This document shows positions 20,605-29,224 of a stretch of 45,279 nucleotides of DNA, one piece after another. Position 1 is the stretch's first letter, and each line of letters opens with the position of its first letter. The notes beneath the pieces were generated by a model that was not told where the DNA came from, did not search any database, and saw only the letters and a program-made list of their open reading frames with translations. A program made the translations under genes and the position numbers. Source of the stretch: Candidatus Levyibacteriota bacterium. Lineage in GTDB: Bacteria > Patescibacteriota > Microgenomatia > Levybacterales > UBA12049. The DNA lies in the NCBI GenBank assembly GCA_016188975.1, contig JACPGQ010000027.1, forward strand, positions 1 through 45,279, given 5' to 3'.

Positions 20605-21246
20605 TTAGGCCGCAGGATCTTCCCGGTCGTTTATACCATAATCCTGCATTCTGTATGGACTTAGCATAAGAACATACTCGCCTGAGCTTTCTTTTATGAG
20701 CTTTCCTTCCATTAATTTTTCATCTGAACTTCTTCGCAAAACGTCATCAATCATCTCTGTCCCTGCATCTTGTTTGATATTGTTGGTTGGCGATGGGAGG
20801 AATCCTCGCAAGGTCAAAATCGTATCGACATCATCAAACTCCGGTTTTCCTGCTATCAGTACACACTCGCCTACTTCAGTCCCTTTAATCCGTCGAATAT
20901 ACAACGAGTGATTCCTGAGTTCTATTTTTCCGGATTCACTCTTATGTGTAAGTCTTGCTATTTCCAATGCATCGACAGACTTATCTTTTTGACTAGGGTA
21001 GTAGAGATGCTTGGCAAGTACTACTCTGTCGGCAGACAGGTTCTGATGGACATCAACAATGGGTTCATTATCTGTGATGCGCGATTCAGAAGGCAGGACG
21101 AGCTGGCCGTTTTGCAGAGATTGCACTGCTGCAATAATATCTTTGGCGAGCCATCCTTCTACGGGAAGGAACTTTTTCTCATCGACAGCACTCCCGTTTT
21201 CGGGGTGAGAGACGGAGTTAAAAGGCGCTTCTTCCGGCTGTGTCAT
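20605..21246 (-). CDS. Hypothetical protein
   Basis: 213 aa ORF co-oriented with neighbours; no motif recognised; ends DPAA. Confidence 0.7.
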   Translation of the reverse strand: MTQPEEAPFNSVSHPENGSAVDEKKFLPVEGWLAKDIIAAVQSLQNGQLVLPSESRITDNEPIVDVHQNLSADRVVLAKHLYYPSQKDKSVDALEIARLTHKSESGKIELRNHSLYIRRIKGTEVGECVLIAGKPEFDDVDTILTLRGFLPSPTNNIKQDAGTEMIDDVLRRSSDEKLMEGKLIKESSGEYVLMLSPYRMQDYGINDREDPAA

Positions 21247-21393: not shown

Positions 21394-22101
21394 CTATCGT
21401 TTTCTGCCAAAAGTGGTGTAATCGGTAAGTTTTTGGAGATCGAGGACGGTAACCCTTCCTCTGTTTACTCGTATAATTCCCTCATCTTCGAGCCTATGAA
21501 GCGAAAGGGTGACTGTTTCGCGAAATGCACCGACGAATTCAGCGATGCGTTGATGCGTCAGTTCAAGTCCTATTTCGATCTCATTTTTTACCTTGATACC
21601 AAATTTCTCAGCGCAATCAGCCAGAAAAATTGCAACACGAGGAGTCGTACTCGCATAAATAAAACTCTCGAATTTTTTTTCCGTGAGGGCGAGACGGTCT
21701 CTATATGCTTGGAGGAGTTCTACGAGAATCTCAGGGTTATTGGCGATCCGATCGAAGCATTCTTTGCGAGATATTGTTTGTACTTTCAGAGGTGTCACTG
21801 CCTCTGCTGCATGGAGTGTGCGGTCATCCTTACTGAGGAGTGTTCGAATGCCCAGTAGCTGGCCTGGGCCGAGAAGATAACTTGTCGTTTCTCTTCCCTC
21901 TTCAGATAAGCGATAAATTTTGAGATAGCCTTCTCGTATTAAATATAATCTGCCCAGTGGATCACCTGTGTTGAAAAGTACCGAACCTTTTTTGACAAAC
22001 TGTACTGGCGGTGCGTCCGGCTCTGAGAAAAGCGAGGTAAAATCAGGCGGATCCCAGACCCGATCGAGTCGCTCCTTGAGTTTTCGTTTCTGCTCGTCCA
22101 C
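21394..22101 (-). CDS. Crp/Fnr family transcriptional regulator
   Basis: cNMP-binding fold (KGSVLFNTGD, LYLIREG, GPGQLLG) and HTH LTHQRIAEFVGAFRETVT; GTG start. Confidence 0.93.
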   Translation of the reverse strand: MDEQKRKLKERLDRVWDPPDFTSLFSEPDAPPVQFVKKGSVLFNTGDPLGRLYLIREGYLKIYRLSEEGRETTSYLLGPGQLLGIRTLLSKDDRTLHAAEAVTPLKVQTISRKECFDRIANNPEILVELLQAYRDRLALTEKKFESFIYASTTPRVAIFLADCAEKFGIKVKNEIEIGLELTHQRIAEFVGAFRETVTLSLHRLEDEGIIRVNRGRVTVLDLQKLTDYTTFGRKR

Positions 22102-22332: not shown

Positions 22333-23445
22333 ATGTTACCAATTGAAGCACGAGCTGGAATGATTCCAGCGATTACAGGGGTTGGAAGCGCAGTTGGATC
22401 TGAAATTAAGACAAACGATGATCTGATACCTCATATAACTGCAGCAAACCCAGAGAAATGGGGTGGAAAAGAGCGTGCTTTCCGAATGCTCATGTATAAA
22501 GTTGGAATCCAAACGAGGCCACAGGTACGTATAGGAGAACAGGCAACCTCTCATTTGGCAACAGAAGCATCGAGAATAGCGATGGAGATGGCAGGAATAA
22601 GACCTGAGGATATCGGCTCAGTAGTAATTGCTACTTCCTCACAAGATTATTTAGGTCTTCCAGTTTCCCCTATGGTCCAAGATAATCTTGGTATTCCGAA
22701 TGATGTTGGAGCTTATGATCTCATGGCAGCCTGTCCAGGGTTTGGGCATAACCTCAGAAATGCTTTTTATGAGGTGACTCATCCTCTTTGGGATGGTAAG
22801 CCGATGCTTATAGGAGGGGCTGAGACAATAAGCCCATACACTGACGCTACGGATGAGAATACCTACCTGCTCTTTGGAGATGCCGCTGGATCGGTGATAG
22901 TTGATTTAGTGAAACCCGATGAAGGTGCACCGACAATATGGAAGATTGTCAGATGGTCAGACGGTAGTAAACGTATGGCAATTAGGGTCGATGCTGGAGG
23001 AACAATGAATCCACCAACTGAAAGGACTGTAAGGGAAAAACAGCATGTACTACGTCTAGATGGAAAAGTAGTAACTCAAACAGCTATTGAGCAGATGACA
23101 AGGCAAATAAAAGACGTACTCGAGCAAACGGGATATCCTGCCGAAGAGGTAAAACTTATTCCACATCAAGCAAATAAGAGTATTATGAATCCTGTAGCAG
23201 AGAATGTTGGGGTTCCTCGCGAGCATGTTGTGGTGACGATTGATAGATACGGAAACACATCTTCAGCAAGTATTCCGACTGCTCTCTACGAAGGTTTTCT
23301 GTCGGGACAGGTAAAACGTAATGAAGTTGTGGTATTTTGTACAGCAGGAGCTGGAATCAATGTCGTATCGGGAGTAATTCCGATGGTTGGATTACCTCAG
23401 GAACCAGATCCGCGATTTCATACGGTTGCAAGAGTTGCAGCTTAA
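22333..23445 (+). CDS. fabH: Beta-ketoacyl-ACP synthase III (FabH-like)
   Basis: Cys-His-Asn triad: DLMAACPGF, PHQAN, YGNTSSASIP; LFGDAAG. Confidence 0.88.
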   Translation: MLPIEARAGMIPAITGVGSAVGSEIKTNDDLIPHITAANPEKWGGKERAFRMLMYKVGIQTRPQVRIGEQATSHLATEASRIAMEMAGIRPEDIGSVVIATSSQDYLGLPVSPMVQDNLGIPNDVGAYDLMAACPGFGHNLRNAFYEVTHPLWDGKPMLIGGAETISPYTDATDENTYLLFGDAAGSVIVDLVKPDEGAPTIWKIVRWSDGSKRMAIRVDAGGTMNPPTERTVREKQHVLRLDGKVVTQTAIEQMTRQIKDVLEQTGYPAEEVKLIPHQANKSIMNPVAENVGVPREHVVVTIDRYGNTSSASIPTALYEGFLSGQVKRNEVVVFCTAGAGINVVSGVIPMVGLPQEPDPRFHTVARVAA

Positions 23446-23451
23446 TTATCT

Positions 23452-24690
23452 ATGATTGATACTGAACCGAGACGAGTTGTAGTCACTGGTATTGGAGCGT
23501 TTTCCGCTCTCGGAGATTCTGCCTCGAAAAATTTCCAAAACCTCGTTGATGGGCAAATCGGCATTTCCCCTCTTCCATTTGAACATTCAACAATAAAGCT
23601 TGCAGGGCAAATAGCAAATTTTAATCTACGGGTAGTTTTTAGTGGATTCGACAATGCTCGGTTTAAAGAAACGAGACGGCTCCCCCGCGCTGCTCAAATA
23701 AGCGATGCTGCTGTTCAGGAAGCTTTACGAAGCGCTTGGCTTTTGAATGATGATTCTTGGTTCAGGGACCCAAGTCTCGCTGAGGAACTCCCTATATATA
23801 TGGCGACAGCAATTGGTGGTGGTTTTGACGTCGACGGACCTGATGCAAAGACGAAGATAAAAATAATTCAAGTTCTTCCTGATACAGTTGCCAGCGGACC
23901 AGGAAGACTATTTGGATTAAAAGGAACAAACATGTCACCGGTAGCAGCCTGTGCAGGCAGCGGTGAAGCTATAGGGATAGCGTTGAGAAATATCAGACAT
24001 GGATACAACGACATCGCTGTTGCAGGGGGAGCTGAGAGCGGCATAATGTCCCGACATCTTGATTACTATGCGGAGATAGGAGCGTTATCAAATTCAGAAG
24101 ATCCTCAGAGAGCAAGCATGCCGTTTGATGCAAACGCTTCTGGTATTGTTCTGGCAGAGCTGGGAGCAGCATTGGTACTCGAGTCAGAGGAGCATGCGGT
24201 GAGAAGAGGAGCGCAGATTTTTGGAGAAGCGTTAGAATTTGCCACCGGATCTGATGCATCCCATCCAACGATGAGCGATGGGTCTGCGCTGCGAAAAACG
24301 ATGCGTCGTGTCCGTATGGCTTTCGATGAAGAAAACACAGATGGAGTCATATTTGTTCAAGCCCATGCCACAGGAACTGAGGGAGATATTGTAGAAGGTG
24401 AAGTAATTGAAGAAGCGCTTGCAGAAGATCGTGAAAAAGTTGTTTATTCGTATAAAGGGAGAACCGGCCATCCGCTTGGTGCTGCAGGGGGATATGGTGC
24501 TTTCGTAACATTATTTGTCCTCAATAGTGGCACTGTGCCCCCGAATAATATTGAACATCCGGTTAAGAATTTTGACTTTGAGCTTCCACAACAAGCAGTT
24601 CAGAAAAGGGTTACGGCAGGGATAAGCAACTCATTAGGATTTGGGGGAAATACAAATTCTCTTGGGTTCGTGCCATACGTGCCCCACTAG
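23452..24690 (+). CDS. fabF: Beta-ketoacyl-ACP synthase II (FabF-like)
   Basis: RRVVVTGIG, AACAGS (Cys), AHATGT and KGRTGHPLGAAG (two His), SNSLGFGG.N. Confidence 0.9.
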   Translation: MIDTEPRRVVVTGIGAFSALGDSASKNFQNLVDGQIGISPLPFEHSTIKLAGQIANFNLRVVFSGFDNARFKETRRLPRAAQISDAAVQEALRSAWLLNDDSWFRDPSLAEELPIYMATAIGGGFDVDGPDAKTKIKIIQVLPDTVASGPGRLFGLKGTNMSPVAACAGSGEAIGIALRNIRHGYNDIAVAGGAESGIMSRHLDYYAEIGALSNSEDPQRASMPFDANASGIVLAELGAALVLESEEHAVRRGAQIFGEALEFATGSDASHPTMSDGSALRKTMRRVRMAFDEENTDGVIFVQAHATGTEGDIVEGEVIEEALAEDREKVVYSYKGRTGHPLGAAGGYGAFVTLFVLNSGTVPPNNIEHPVKNFDFELPQQAVQKRVTAGISNSLGFGGNTNSLGFVPYVPH

Positions 24691-24724
24691 GTTAGTTTTG
24701 GCATCTGTGTTCGTCGAATAGGAG

Positions 24725-25948
24725 TTACGCAGCGAGCCGATCTCGGTAGAGGTTTGGATCGAGGAAGACAAGTTCTGCAAAATCTTGAGACCCTCCTGCT
24801 CCGTAAGCAAATATTATTACACTCCGCCCTGGCTCTGTGATGTCACGTACGTTGCCGTCGTGATAATCAAAACCTCGATGAAGTACTTTTCCCAGGGTGG
24901 CTGCACTACTATTTCCATCCTCCTTAGCAAGAAAAGGCATAGGTGCAGGTATTTCGTTGCGTTTGAGATCTCCGACGAAGAGATCGAAGACCGGTAGACT
25001 CGGATTGTGGGCAAAAATGGGGGGGAGCTGTTTTCCAGGATGTGCATCCATGTAGGCCTTCATTTCTCGTAATAAGAACGGCCCGGACTTCCTTCCAAAA
25101 AACCGAAACGTTGCCATTCCATCCATCCAAATATCATACCCCTCTGGAGGCTCTGCCATGATTATCATCTCCGTATTGTTCTCTGAATCTACCTGCCAAT
25201 ACTGTCTTATATCTTTAGGATCTGTGATCGGTTTTGTTTTATCTTTGTAGGTCATTGTCGCAGCAAGTACGCCGTTTTCATCAGGAATAATTTCATGACG
25301 ATGATGATGTATCTCTGTTTCAACAAGAGAAACATATCCTGTTATGGATACTGAATTTGAAAACGCACGATATGATGTAATGTCTACTCTTTTAGGGTTA
25401 TTTGTATATCTTGTCATGCCCTCAACGTTCACTTGCAATATCCTTTTTCCCTGAAATTCTTCTCGCTCGTGTGCTGCAGCTAATCCATACGCTGGTGAAT
25501 TACAGGCCGCAAAGACGTTAAGTGTTGGAATGTCAGGGTCTAGACCGATTCGATCTGCTATCTCTCTTGCGTAATTTGGAATTTTCCTTTTCCCATTGAT
25601 GCCTGGCATACCGCTTGTTACGATTACGCCTCCGACATCGGGTTTTGCCCATTCTCTTTCTCTAATTACCTCGTTTCCTACAGTTACTGCAGCCTCGATC
25701 TCATCTGATATGGCAGCTTCATCGTCGAGTTGGGGGTCGGTTTGATAAATGCAGTCAAATCCAAGATCTTTTTTGCGGAGTTCGTCCTCTGGTACTTGAT
25801 AGTATGTTGAAGCTCTACTTATGACCTCGTCTCTTGATAGCTTTACTCCCCATTGGCCATTTATTCCGACAATACCGGTGACGCTTCGATGTCTGTCAAT
25901 ATCAATCGGAGTGCCACTCGAGAGTTTGGGAGGTGTCAGCGTTTCCAT
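24725..25948 (-). CDS. Divergent KAS III-like thiolase-fold condensing enzyme
   Basis: FAACNS (Cys), FAHNPS (His), DGNSSAA (Asn), AYGAGG C-terminal motif. Confidence 0.75.
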   Translation of the reverse strand: METLTPPKLSSGTPIDIDRHRSVTGIVGINGQWGVKLSRDEVISRASTYYQVPEDELRKKDLGFDCIYQTDPQLDDEAAISDEIEAAVTVGNEVIREREWAKPDVGGVIVTSGMPGINGKRKIPNYAREIADRIGLDPDIPTLNVFAACNSPAYGLAAAHEREEFQGKRILQVNVEGMTRYTNNPKRVDITSYRAFSNSVSITGYVSLVETEIHHHRHEIIPDENGVLAATMTYKDKTKPITDPKDIRQYWQVDSENNTEMIIMAEPPEGYDIWMDGMATFRFFGRKSGPFLLREMKAYMDAHPGKQLPPIFAHNPSLPVFDLFVGDLKRNEIPAPMPFLAKEDGNSSAATLGKVLHRGFDYHDGNVRDITEPGRSVIIFAYGAGGSQDFAELVFLDPNLYRDRLAA

Positions 25949-26014
25949 ACGAAGAGTATATTGATTTTTGGATCTTGCGGTCAGTGCGGGAGATTACAAA
26001 GGATTAGTAGTTAT

Positions 26015-26971
26015 TTATGCTGCGAAAAGCGTTTGCGCTTGTTCAAATGGGATGAGTCCTGCTTGAGTTCTTTTGTACGACGTAACGAGCTCGTCTCGCT
26101 GATTGAGGACTGTAGCTCCTGATGCAACAATAACAACGTCTCCCATTGGTCTGATTTGGAGTCCTTGTGGAATAATTTGAAGCACATCCCCTACTCTAAC
26201 TGGTCTATAATACTCGGCTCCTGCAATTTTTTTGAAGACGCCTACTTTGAGTGGTTTTCCTTCTGCATCTACTGGAAGACCTCCTGTTCCCATAGCCGCC
26301 GTTGCTATGAATTGAATTGCTGCTTCATCAATCTCATCAAAGGGTAAAACCTCTTCATTCTTAGGTACCCGTTCAAACCTCACTCTTTTCATGCTTATTA
26401 CGTCTTGACCCCCACGTTTCCCTTTAATATCCGCATACACTCCATCAACGCCTGCTCCTTGTGTTTCGGCAGTAAATTCTGCAGTATCTCCTTTTCTCAC
26501 AACTCCCTCAAAATTGACTGTCTCACTACTCACGACGAATACATCATACTTCTGCCTAAATTCTTCAAGTGTTAGGTTGTATGCAGACAATACGGCTGTT
26601 GTTACACCAGCACGTTCACTATAGTGACCAGGAGTTGGTTTAAATTCTTGGAGTAACCCGTCAAAATGTCCTGTGGTTTGGAGATCTGCAGTAAAAGATC
26701 CTACCCCGTTTTGAAATGTGTCAAGCGTAGGGACCGATCGTGCCCATCGAACTAGTTCCGGAGTAACCGTGAGAAATCCTCGAGCATTTTCTCCTTCTCC
26801 ATCAACTCGGTGGATACGAATTGCCGGAGGTCCCCAAATATCGAGTGCTGTCTGTGGGACGGTAGGTGGGAGAATGATGTCGGCACGAGGCAGAGTTATA
26901 TCACTCGGTTTAGGTGCTTGAAATCCTGCTTCTTGTGGAGAAATTGGCTGTCTTGGTGTTCCGTCTAGCAT
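26015..26971 (-). CDS. Double hot-dog fold FabZ/FabA-like dehydratase
   Basis: GHFD...PG..ER, VNFEGVVRKGD and second-domain AEYYRPVRVGD; start at MLDGT, 1 nt after the upstream stop. Confidence 0.7.
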   Translation of the reverse strand: MLDGTPRQPISPQEAGFQAPKPSDITLPRADIILPPTVPQTALDIWGPPAIRIHRVDGEGENARGFLTVTPELVRWARSVPTLDTFQNGVGSFTADLQTTGHFDGLLQEFKPTPGHYSERAGVTTAVLSAYNLTLEEFRQKYDVFVVSSETVNFEGVVRKGDTAEFTAETQGAGVDGVYADIKGKRGGQDVISMKRVRFERVPKNEEVLPFDEIDEAAIQFIATAAMGTGGLPVDAEGKPLKVGVFKKIAGAEYYRPVRVGDVLQIIPQGLQIRPMGDVVIVASGATVLNQRDELVTSYKRTQAGLIPFEQAQTLFAA

Positions 26972-26972
26972 A

Positions 26973-28169
26973 TTAAATCGGACTTCTGAATGTGAGCATT
27001 GGATGGTCTTGAGGAATTTCCCTGACAATATTTGCTCGCGCTTCCTCTGGGGTTCCTGTCGGACCTAATACATAGAGTTTTCGCGGTTGTCCTGGCGTCC
27101 AAAGCTCAGGATCGTTGGGATCTGAGAGAAGCATGATCTGGACCGCCCTGGACATATCGGCTTTCATCATTGGCTTGTTGGTATCTGTGTATCGTTTTCT
27201 ATCATCTTCTGATAGTAAGGGCAAAAGGTATTGGTTTACCATTCTTCCAACACCAGTATCGTCTATCACCTGTCCTACAACAGTGTATGGGAAAACTCCA
27301 TTGGATTCCAGATAGCTTCTTCCTTCATCAGAATGTATTTCGTCGTCATGAGCTTTTTTTGATTCTGATATCGTGCGATACCAGTTAGGGACAATTGTGT
27401 CCTCATCAAGATCTCGTGCAGATTCCGCAACCTTTTCCGCTTCACTCCACGCGCTAGCAAAATTTATATATTTTGCTTCGTCTGTAAAAAGACCTTTCTG
27501 GATAAGATCTTCTAGCAGCAAACTTGGTCCAGCGTAATTTACTTTCATTGCCATCGGCATTGACCGAATTACCCACTGCACAACATCCTGTTGTAGTTTG
27601 GCACGCGCTTCTACAAATGCCTCTTCACCTTGTTCAGTACGTATAGTTGCCAATTTCCCCATCGCTTTCGTAAGTCTTAGTGCGTAGAATTCTATTCCTC
27701 CGGCGCTTACATTTATCTCTGCAGAGAATTTATCACCGCCTTTACTTTCTAGTTCGTTGCCAACATTTTTGATGCTTCGTCTGTTTAAAAAATCGACCTT
27801 GACCGGGGTAATATGTGCATCAATATCAATCTCTCCAGAAATTTTTCCTCCTGCCTGAGACGTTTTTGCATCTTTAACAACTGACCCTTCAATTTTTTCT
27901 GGATTTCTTGTGAGAATTGTCACTTTCGCTCCCATCCCGACAAGATCTAGTGAGACTGTGGCTCCTGTGCCCCTACTCCCTCCCGTAACGAGGATTTCTT
28001 GCCCAAAAAGAGGTAGCCCTTCAGCTGATTCAGTTTGCGGGAGAAATGCAGCCGAAGCGTCTAGAGCTCGAGGGGTACCGAAATCTGCTCCTCCGCCACC
28101 CTTTCCCCCAAAAGGAGCTTCGGTTTGAGTGTTTGCAAAAACACCTGCTTCGAGTGCTGCTATTGGCAT
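26973..28169 (-). CDS. Divergent SDR oxidoreductase, enoyl-reductase-like (Y-x6-K)
   Basis: ILVTGGSRGTG Rossmann motif, NVSAGG, PNWYRTISESK. Confidence 0.7.
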   Translation of the reverse strand: MPIAALEAGVFANTQTEAPFGGKGGGGADFGTPRALDASAAFLPQTESAEGLPLFGQEILVTGGSRGTGATVSLDLVGMGAKVTILTRNPEKIEGSVVKDAKTSQAGGKISGEIDIDAHITPVKVDFLNRRSIKNVGNELESKGGDKFSAEINVSAGGIEFYALRLTKAMGKLATIRTEQGEEAFVEARAKLQQDVVQWVIRSMPMAMKVNYAGPSLLLEDLIQKGLFTDEAKYINFASAWSEAEKVAESARDLDEDTIVPNWYRTISESKKAHDDEIHSDEGRSYLESNGVFPYTVVGQVIDDTGVGRMVNQYLLPLLSEDDRKRYTDTNKPMMKADMSRAVQIMLLSDPNDPELWTPGQPRKLYVLGPTGTPEEARANIVREIPQDHPMLTFRSPI

Positions 28170-28174
28170 ATTTT

Positions 28175-29224
28175 TTAGGCTGCGAGCCAGGTTGGGATTT
28201 CTCCTCGACCAAACATTGGTATTACTTGACCTGTGATTCCGTCGGAGTACGGACCCATCAAATAGGCGAGCATAGCTCCCGGTTCACCTGCATCAAGTTC
28301 TCTGTCGGCTCCCATTTTTGTAACAATTCCTGCACGAACCTCTGGTGATAATCCGGCAACTAAGGGGGTATCAACAAGTCCTGGGGCAATTGCGTTTACT
28401 TCAATATTGTGAGGTGGTCTGCCTTTTTCAAGAGCTCTCTGATTCAGAATATTAAGCTCGTCTGCAAGAGCTCTTATCCCTGCGTGAAATGCGCCTTTCG
28501 CCATTGAGTATTCAATTTGAAAAGCGTTTCCAATTCCAGAAGCACTTCCAATCCCAGCTATTTTCCCTCCAGCTGGGTTCTGGCTTTGCATAATCTCTGC
28601 AGCAGTTATAGCGGCAAACATTGGCCCCTCGGCGTCCTTTAATAGAATCTCTCGTACCTTTTCTGGTTCAACTTTTTTGTATGACCAAGTGTTCTGCATA
28701 TCTCCAGATCCCACGATGAGGCCATCCAGTCTGCCCCGCTCTTTTGCAACCTGCCGTACGAGTCTTTGACCATCATACATTTCGACTTTTTTTCCCCTAT
28801 CGTTTGTCACCGAAATCCAAGCTGCAACATCTGAACCCATCCACTGCGCATTTGGGCCAAGCTTTTCAAGAAATTCTCTCATTCCTGAACTTTTCGGTTC
28901 GCCAGAATCGGTCATCCGAGAACTCACCACTACAAACGCACCCTGTAAAATCAGCTCCCTTGCTGCAGCACCAGCCATTCCTTTAGGGCCAGCTCCAAGT
29001 GCAAGAATCACTTTTCCTTGCATTACCTGATTTTCTCTTGCCTCACGGATTGTCTGGGCATTAAATCCTGTAATGTCTGGATTAAAAACTTGAAGGCTTA
29101 ATTCCAGTGGCTTCGCTACCTGTTGTTCCGCTCCGCCTGGTAGTACTCCTGTATCAGGATATAAAAGTTCTGTGCGTCCGATTCTGGCGAGGGGTCCTGC
29201 AAATGTTTCTATTCCTGCTGCCAT
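28175..29224 (-). CDS. SDR oxidoreductase, FabG-like 3-oxoacyl reductase
   Basis: GKVILALGAG, GRLDGLI, GNAFQIEYSMAK (YxxxK), VNAIAPGLVDT, ITGQVI. Confidence 0.8.
   Translation of the reverse strand: MAAGIETFAGPLARIGRTELLYPDTGVLPGGAEQQVAKPLELSLQVFNPDITGFNAQTIREARENQVMQGKVILALGAGPKGMAGAAARELILQGAFVVVSSRMTDSGEPKSSGMREFLEKLGPNAQWMGSDVAAWISVTNDRGKKVEMYDGQRLVRQVAKERGRLDGLIVGSGDMQNTWSYKKVEPEKVREILLKDAEGPMFAAITAAEIMQSQNPAGGKIAGIGSASGIGNAFQIEYSMAKGAFHAGIRALADELNILNQRALEKGRPPHNIEVNAIAPGLVDTPLVAGLSPEVRAGIVTKMGADRELDAGEPGAMLAYLMGPYSDGITGQVIPMFGRGEIPTWLAA

Follow-up and report, generated by a model that had tools for sequence, protein, structure and literature searches.

Four of the six enzymes encoded by a gene island that resembles type II fatty-acid synthase (FAS-II) end in two alanine residues. 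The island lies in a window of 45,279 nucleotides (the whole stretch of DNA analysed; contig JACPGQ010000027.1) from a Candidatus Levyibacteriota bacterium, where its six genes sit between those for a Crp-type regulator and dihydroorotase. The same Ala-Ala (AA) ending recurs in four related islands, and the protease that usually reads such ends, ClpXP, was not found in the island genomes searched. Taken together, the termini look like a genome-encoded, ssrA-like C-terminal tag that is pathway-wide and operates without ClpXP. The best explanation, offered tentatively, is that the tag may be an ssrA-like degron read by FtsH or Lon, which would tune an apparently acyl carrier protein (ACP)-less lipid pathway.

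All five termini given in the initial annotation of this DNA are present: RVAA, RLAA, LFAA and WLAA on four of the six island enzymes, and DPAA on an orphan open reading frame (ORF) nearby. The enzymes span three unrelated folds, as that annotation had it: thiolase-like and short-chain dehydrogenase/reductase (SDR) by Pfam and PDB sequence matches, and double hotdog by an AlphaFold model. Its remark that housekeeping proteins lack the ending is right for the window, where none of the 36 other ORFs of at least 100 amino acids (aa) has it, and wrong for the genome, in which RecA (...ESVAA) and ribosomal protein S12 (...PTAAA) end in AA.

The genome that contains the window (G000) is a 1.31 Mb assembly in 76 contigs, with 43% G+C and an estimated completeness of 94%. 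ORFs of at least 100 aa were called crudely, longest first, and an ORF was dropped if more than a quarter of its length was overlapped, which gives a greedy non-overlapping set; counts of C-termini are unaffected by the choice of start codon, as stop positions are independent of it. By this count 21 of 1193 ORFs in G000 end in AA, where the marginal frequencies of Ala at the final two positions predict 6.1, and no other C-terminal dipeptide of the crude set is as common. The ending is thus not rare in the genome, yet it is strongly concentrated in the island: five of the 21 fall within nine consecutive ORFs, a density reached by 2 of 20,000 shuffles of the AA flag. The clustering is highly non-random and far beyond chance. 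The remaining 16 include RecA, S12, a membrane protein and many hypothetical proteins. One possible source of this general excess is weaker selection against such ends in a genome that lacks ClpXP.

Four related islands were found in other genomes of the same family: L015 in G001, which belongs to the same genus, L025 in G460, L026 in G461 and L088 in G462. Wherever the flanks are visible the slot is the same, between dihydroorotase and crp/SIMPL. AA ends occur in three of six proteins in G001 (hotdog ...QFAA, KAS3b ...RLAA and a different, long FabF ...RYAA), three of eight in L088 (SDR ...VQAA, hotdog ...GQAA, KAS3b-like ...RKAA), three of five in L026 (the unassigned protein p329 ...EEAA, FabG-like ...WLAA, long FabF ...MAAA) and two of four in L025 (FabG-like ...WLAA, SDR-hotdog fusion ...TPAA). 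With the four of six in G000, 15 of 29 island proteins carry the ending, compared with 24 of 2029 background ORFs (1.2%), an odds ratio of about 90. The background comes from four of the five island genomes, G000 (16/1186), G001 (1/179), G461 (1/334) and G460 (6/330), the latter three sampled; the G000 set leaves out the island proteins and the orphan. Because of the kinship among the five islands, the pooled counts are not independent and a pooled p-value overstates the case. Even so, the tails stand as a non-random feature across unrelated folds, and two checks that the initial annotation had proposed, on frequency in the proteome and on conservation among orthologs, come out in their favour.

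The ending is not confined to one gene. Eight of 13 ortholog groups have an AA-ending member, and tagged and untagged members both occur among FabH, KAS3b, long FabF, ketoreductase (KR)-type SDRs, the SDR-hotdog fusion and p329. Two groups are never tagged: SDR2, which always ends ...HPMLTFRSPI, and short FabF (...YVPH or ...YVPR). Of 194 family genomes, 26 have a ketoacyl-synthase domain according to a search that took no account of tails. This search provides 22 further ketosynthase loci from 21 genomes, in which, after removal of five ORFs with masked residues in the last eight positions, AA ends number 3 of 43 among FAS-like ORFs, 1 of 50 among ORFs adjacent to them and 1 of 254 among others (Fisher p 0.015). 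Most of these loci hold just one to three FAS-like genes, so the strong effect is a property of the five full islands.

Judged by comparison of the proteins and their codons, AA in the islands behaves like a selected, appended terminal tag and not like a structural residue, because it is kept through synonymous codon changes and upstream indels and has in one case been added to an end that is otherwise conserved. The KAS3b protein, a divergent condensing enzyme resembling ketoacyl synthase III (KAS III), is 85% identical in G001 and ends there in ...RLAA through different Ala codons; among KAS3b orthologs the pair is written GCT-GCG, GCC-GCA and GCA-GCG, and among the hotdog proteins GCA-GCA and GCT-GCA. 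The ending is shared by every one of the four known hotdog proteins of this family, at identities of 36-57%, with the alanines placed directly after a conserved Phe (...LFAA, ...QFAA) or three residues further on (...LFQRKAA, ...RFQGQAA). The KAS3b-like protein of L088 ends ...EYGLRKAA, whereas its relatives P0012 and P0009 stop at ...EYGVRK and ...EYLQRKR, and the AA of L088 is therefore an add-on. Of 73 sequences compared from the wider KAS3b family, 8 carry the ending, and six of these are distant relatives, at 22-27% identity. The FabG-like family conserves the whole ...GRGEIP[ST]WLAA segment at 55-63% identity, with ...GRGEIPSWLAA in L025 and L026; P0076, at 53% identity, ends ...SWLV.

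The tails are also located past the conserved cores. In the FabH-like protein AA closes a Pro-rich extension that runs for about 19 residues past the FabH core, and homology with solved FabH chains stops at residues 343-351 of 370. The FabG-like core ends at residue 339 of 349 in comparison with solved FabG chains, the tail extends past it, and residues 335-349 have a pLDDT below 50 in the AlphaFold model. The last block of the hotdog protein is modelled at a pLDDT of about 64. Residues upstream of AA are often charged, and position -3 is W, F, Y, L or V in eight of the 15 island tails and none of these in seven.

Three origins at the level of DNA or translation were considered and rejected. 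A DNA-level repeat supplying GCNGCNTAA does not fit, as the Ala codons vary and no motif is present in the 12 bases downstream of the stops. AA tails precede TAA in 14 of 15 cases and the ends of untagged island proteins do so in 8 of 13, a difference that is not significant (Fisher p 0.07), and genome-wide an Ala at -1 or -2 is unrelated to stop type. Read-through fusion has one candidate junction, FabH/FabF, in frame and separated by 6 nt; at the remaining junctions the frames differ or additional stops intervene.

Which factor might read such ends depends on the proteases at hand. The initial annotation favoured coordinated turnover by ClpXP, with the enzymes hard-wired to it by degrons. 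The tails do resemble the ...LAA end of Escherichia coli ssrA, and PMC10862746 describes an E. coli screen of C-terminal pentapeptides in which Ala is enriched about 7-fold at the last two positions in a ClpXP-dependent manner. The genomes contradict this reading. In G000 the best match to the ClpX model TIGR00382 scores 20.7 bits against a cut-off of 371 and lies within a two-ring ClpB/ClpC-like ATPase, and the sole match to the ClpP family PF00574 is a membrane-anchored SppA-type peptidase. Neither ClpX nor ClpP was found in G001, G460, G461 or G049 (G462 was outside this search), and only 2 of 60 relatives have ClpP-like matches, of moderate strength. On these searches a ClpXP degron is scarcely credible as the explanation.

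Of the ATP-dependent proteases looked for, Lon and FtsH alone turned up; neither HslV nor the proteasome was detected. FtsH is present in G000 (Peptidase_M41, 215 bits, contig C31), and Lon is intact in G001, G460, G461 and G462, where a full-length Lon_C domain lies in open frames of 762-811 aa. A tail-specific S41 protease with a PDZ domain and a neighbouring HtrA carry N-terminal hydrophobic membrane or signal segments and therefore probably act outside the cytoplasm, which makes the S41/PDZ protease an unlikely reader for cytosolic enzymes.

The tags added by transfer-messenger RNA (tmRNA) offer a second view of C-terminal recognition. The tag of G000 is unusually long, at 33 residues, and ends ...MPRIAPAFA (contig C4; L001 1501-1903), rather than in the LAA of the model on which the initial annotation drew. 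Related tags (L089-L092) end ...RPALALAA in G461, ...APALAVA in G460 and ...YAYAVA in G462. In G001 the tmRNA is matched by a covariance model and by nothing in ARAGORN. Since ssrA tags still end in small nonpolar residues in the absence of ClpXP, some factor must read such ends.

The tentative explanation runs as follows. The AA end on about half of the island enzymes would serve as an ssrA-like degron, and its reader, sought in FtsH or Lon because ClpXP is missing, would be whichever protease clears tmRNA-tagged proteins in the lineage. Tagged enzymes would be short-lived, and their levels would be set after translation, much as FtsH controls LpxC in E. coli. We infer both degradation through the tag and the identity of the protease. 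This reading is ranked first because it calls for no unknown component and agrees with the flexible ends, the gain and loss of the tag enzyme by enzyme and the LpxC precedent.

Three known systems bracket the proposal. Like the ssrA degron of ClpXP, the island tails have a free AA C-terminus, often a hydrophobic residue at -3 (WLAA, RLAA, LFAA, RVAA, RYAA) and an exposed extension; they differ in being encoded in the gene instead of added by tmRNA, in marking several enzymes of one pathway, in occurring in genomes with no detected ClpX or ClpP and in being polar at -3 in about half of the cases. The FtsH degron of LpxC is the C-terminal LAFKAPSAVLA, as PMC8138137 cites it from Fuhrer et al. 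2006. It shares with the islands a lipid-pathway enzyme, a C-terminal signal ending in small nonpolar residues, the presence of FtsH and, as proposed here, the logic of tuning membrane-lipid synthesis through proteolysis. LpxC is one enzyme with a longer signal, however, whereas the islands have two to four enzymes that share the last two residues only. Mycoplasma has Lon and FtsH only, together with a divergent ssrA tag (PMC8138137), and for Lon of Mycoplasma pneumoniae a small hydrophobic tail at the free C-terminus can be enough to bring about degradation (PMC7737663). The present case resembles Mycoplasma and Mesoplasma in its proteases, Lon and FtsH with neither ClpXP nor HslV detected, and in a long tmRNA tag; the Lon signals described in those bacteria are hydrophobic or aromatic (LVQKLI, FNY; PMC8138137 and PMC7737663), not Ala-Ala.

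Several observations weigh against a degron read by FtsH or Lon. The lon gene of G000 changes frame inside the Lon_C protease domain (contig C59, L018 37-2168). The island tails are AA regardless of how the genome's own tmRNA tag ends (AFA, AVA or LAA), and about half are polar at -3 (GQAA, RKAA, VQAA, TPAA, EEAA), unlike hydrophobic Lon and FtsH signals. Proteins expected to be stable also carry the ending, namely RpoC of G460 (...ELAA) as well as RecA and S12 of G000; as the commonest C-terminal dipeptide of G000, AA is therefore not a strong degron by itself. Enrichment is much weaker in the 22 further ketosynthase loci, with 3 of 43 FAS-like ORFs. Finally, in the E. coli screen of PMC10862746, ssrA-like pentapeptide tags did not emerge without clpX or clpP. 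The frame break in G000 lon leaves the catalytic Ser and Lys regions in separate ORFs, with about 13 residues apparently missing at the junction; it may be genuine or an artefact of the assembly.

The genes concerned are listed in Table 1.

Table 1. Genes of the island and its surroundings in the window, and Cu-oxidase_4 proteins at other loci
Feature	Sequence	Position	Strand	Length (aa)	C-terminus	Domains and remarks
FabH-like KAS III	window	22333..23445	+	370	...PQEPDPRFHTVARVAA (RVAA), stop TAA	Pfam ACP_syn_III, ACP_syn_III_C
FabF-like KAS I/II	window	23452..24690	+	412	...GFVPYVPH, without AA	Pfam ketoacyl-synt N and C domains
KAS3b, divergent KAS III-like condensing enzyme	window	24725..25948	-	407	...FLDPNLYRDRLAA (RLAA)	
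Double-hotdog protein (dehydratase or thioesterase)	window	26015..26971	-	318 (from ATG 26971)	...FEQAQTLFAA	
SDR2, degenerate SDR-like	window	26973..28169	-	398	...HPMLTFRSPI	weak adh_short match, residues 59-95 only
KR-type SDR (FabG-like)	window	28175..29224	-	349	...GRGEIPTWLAA	Pfam adh_short_C2, adh_short
Orphan ORF	window	20605..21246	-	213	...DPAA	
Crp/Fnr-type regulator	window	21394..22101	-			Pfam cNMP_binding, HTH_Crp_2
Cu-oxidase_4 protein	L134	2083-3030				
Cu-oxidase_4 protein	L140	11742-12740				
Cu-oxidase_4 protein	L131	11236-12189				

Pfam and structure comparison identify the FAS-II-type parts as condensing enzymes, a ketoreductase-like SDR and a hotdog protein. The FabH-like homolog in L088 ends ...HSKAM, not AA, and the FabF-like ortholog there is 71% identical and ends ...YVPR. 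KAS3b has no Pfam match above the curated cut-off, and Cys149, His314 and Asn346 are invariant in its family alignment. The hotdog protein likewise has no Pfam family above the curated cut-off; its AlphaFold model (pLDDT 76) has two hotdog units and a less confident terminal helix at 309-317, and Foldseek matches it at TM scores of 0.4-0.46 to the FAS dehydratase domain, acyl-ACP thioesterases and TesB. The longest hotdog ORF opens at TTG 27028, which is probably not the start: ATG 26971, directly after the SDR2 stop, is likelier. The SDR2 stop and hotdog start are coupled in a TAA-T-ATG junction conserved in three islands (window, L015, L088), and the SDR2 terminus together with this junction is identical in G001 and L088.

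The Crp/Fnr-type regulator adjoins every island with a visible flank, and its orthologs in G001 and L088 are 81-87% identical. The orphan has no Pfam match and no homolog in the 193 other family genomes, for which reason it is kept out of the island tallies; its site in related islands is empty or occupied by a second crp gene. It is not assignable to the island. At other loci, two genomes have Cu-oxidase_4 (YfiH/PgeF-like) proteins near FabF-like genes with the ends ...RQAA and ...PQAA, and the corresponding protein of a third genome ends ...RQAT.

The island appears to be a rare FAS-II-like accessory set, apparently without ACP and with about half of its enzymes tagged, in one family of small-genome, Levybacteria-like bacteria of the candidate phyla radiation (CPR). 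The KAS3b family has 71 matches at E<=1e-3 among 1.84 billion representative proteins; it was matched in 3 of 60 relatives, its profile matched none of a sample of 400 other genomes of the phylum, and two metagenome scans found nothing. Within one genus the island is a mosaic. Between G000 and G001 KAS3b is 85% identical, the hotdog protein 36% and SDR2 42%; G001 has replacements for the FabF type and the KR-type SDR, and another KAS III stands in for FabH. Such a pattern suggests recombination, or an exchange of cassettes, within one conserved slot of the chromosome. SDR-hotdog fusions of 459 and 481 aa (L025 1099-2478; L026 10866-12311) replace the separate SDR2 and hotdog genes, a hint that the two activities physically cooperate. 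A PLD-type, phospholipid-synthase-like gene stands beside two islands (L026 5533-8620 region; L088 5818-6846), and L026 also has an ATP-binding cassette (ABC) transporter pair; such neighbours fit a membrane-lipid role.

No ACP (PF00550) was matched in G000, G001, G460, G461 or G462, in a six-frame search that a very divergent small ACP could escape, and no phosphopantetheinyl transferase (PPTase; PF01648) was matched in G000. This suggests that the island pathway is ACP-independent, based on coenzyme A, or served by a very divergent carrier. The set shares with type II FAS the clustering of KAS III, KAS I/II, a ketoreductase-like SDR and a hotdog protein, and G000 encodes elsewhere a FabD-like acyltransferase with a GHSxG motif (G000:C57:22754-23740, end ...PSTC). 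It departs from type II FAS in the lack of a detected ACP or PPTase, in its very divergent members and in the extra pseudo-SDR and the SDR-hotdog fusions. According to PMC11608272, CPR genomes are generally without fatty-acid biosynthesis genes and have scattered fabG and fabZ. The island is notable in itself: its divergent FAS-like enzymes come without a detectable ACP, and the lineage is generally described as devoid of fatty-acid synthesis.

A different use of a shared terminus would be docking: the free ...AA-COOH might bind a common receptor, such as an island protein, a scaffold or a membrane site, and so build a channelling complex. With no ACP in the five island genomes and no PPTase in G000, intermediates would travel without the usual carrier and a complex would help. 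The SDR-hotdog fusions of L025 and L026, the tight coupling of gene junctions, the placing of tags on flexible extensions and the conservation of 11 terminal residues in the FabG-like family, beyond AA itself, all agree with assembly. Yet no candidate receptor is at hand, as S41 and HtrA, the proteases with PDZ domains, begin with membrane or signal segments, and G000 has no encapsulin (PF04454), in a search that did not cover bacterial microcompartment shell proteins or tetratricopeptide-repeat receptors. The tagged set also differs by island (long FabF, KAS3b, FabH, KR-type SDRs), which is odd for fixed partners, and the tails have just two residues in common. Docking is thus rather unlikely. 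The peroxisomal targeting signal 1 (PTS1), a tripeptide of the SKL type, and encapsulin cargo peptides gather unrelated enzymes. They resemble the island tails in acting on unrelated enzymes of one pathway through a very short signal at the extreme C-terminus, and differ in that here a known receptor or compartment is lacking and no encapsulin shell gene was found in G000. A pathway-address tag of this kind, a counterpart of PTS1 whose putative single receptor would gather ACP-independent enzymes at one complex or membrane site, is a doubtful, more speculative proposal. The tag would then be gained and lost per enzyme as the composition of the island shifts, and Lon or FtsH could also degrade unassembled subunits that expose it.

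The ends may instead have no function: without ClpXP nothing would select against AA, and the tails would come from shared ancestry, recombination between islands and chance. AA is over-represented outside the island in G000 as well (16 of 1186 against about 6 expected), ClpP is lacking across the order, with ClpP-like matches in 2 of 60 relatives, orthologs have often lost their tags, and the relatedness of the islands and the 3 of 43 in other ketosynthase loci both suit this account. It is weakened by the codon, indel and add-on evidence. AA persists at 36% identity despite synonymous codon changes and an upstream indel, arose independently as an add-on in KAS3b of L088 and extends over 8 of 13 ortholog groups and at least three folds; the DNA downstream holds no motif, Ala has no genome-wide link to stop type, and backgrounds in G001 and G461 are low (1/179 and 1/334). 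A non-adaptive origin is accordingly held to be improbable, if not strongly so. The initial annotation also raised a shared C-terminal signal for unfoldase-driven export; the recipient of the enzymes would be a secretion system or a host cell. Reliance on other cells for lipids is generally assumed for relatives of this lineage, and certain secretion systems recognise signals at the C-terminus. Against export, neither a secretion ATPase nor a channel is encoded in the island or its flanks, no secretion signal was found, and the enzymes have cofactor-dependent, cytosolic folds; the ABC-2 transporter near the L026 island is of a type that moves small molecules. Export is very unlikely.

Short C-terminal degrons are well known for single proteins, and a literature search turned up no report of shared Ala-Ala termini and none of FAS-like islands in this group. 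What appears to be new here is a two-residue end shared by unrelated folds of one bacterial pathway where the usual protease was not found. Should the AA tag be a degron read by FtsH or Lon, it would show post-translational control of a whole pathway in a bacterium with these two proteases only, and would point to a reader of ssrA-type ends where ClpXP is absent. Should it be an assembly or address tag, it would represent a new organising principle for carrier-less lipid synthesis.

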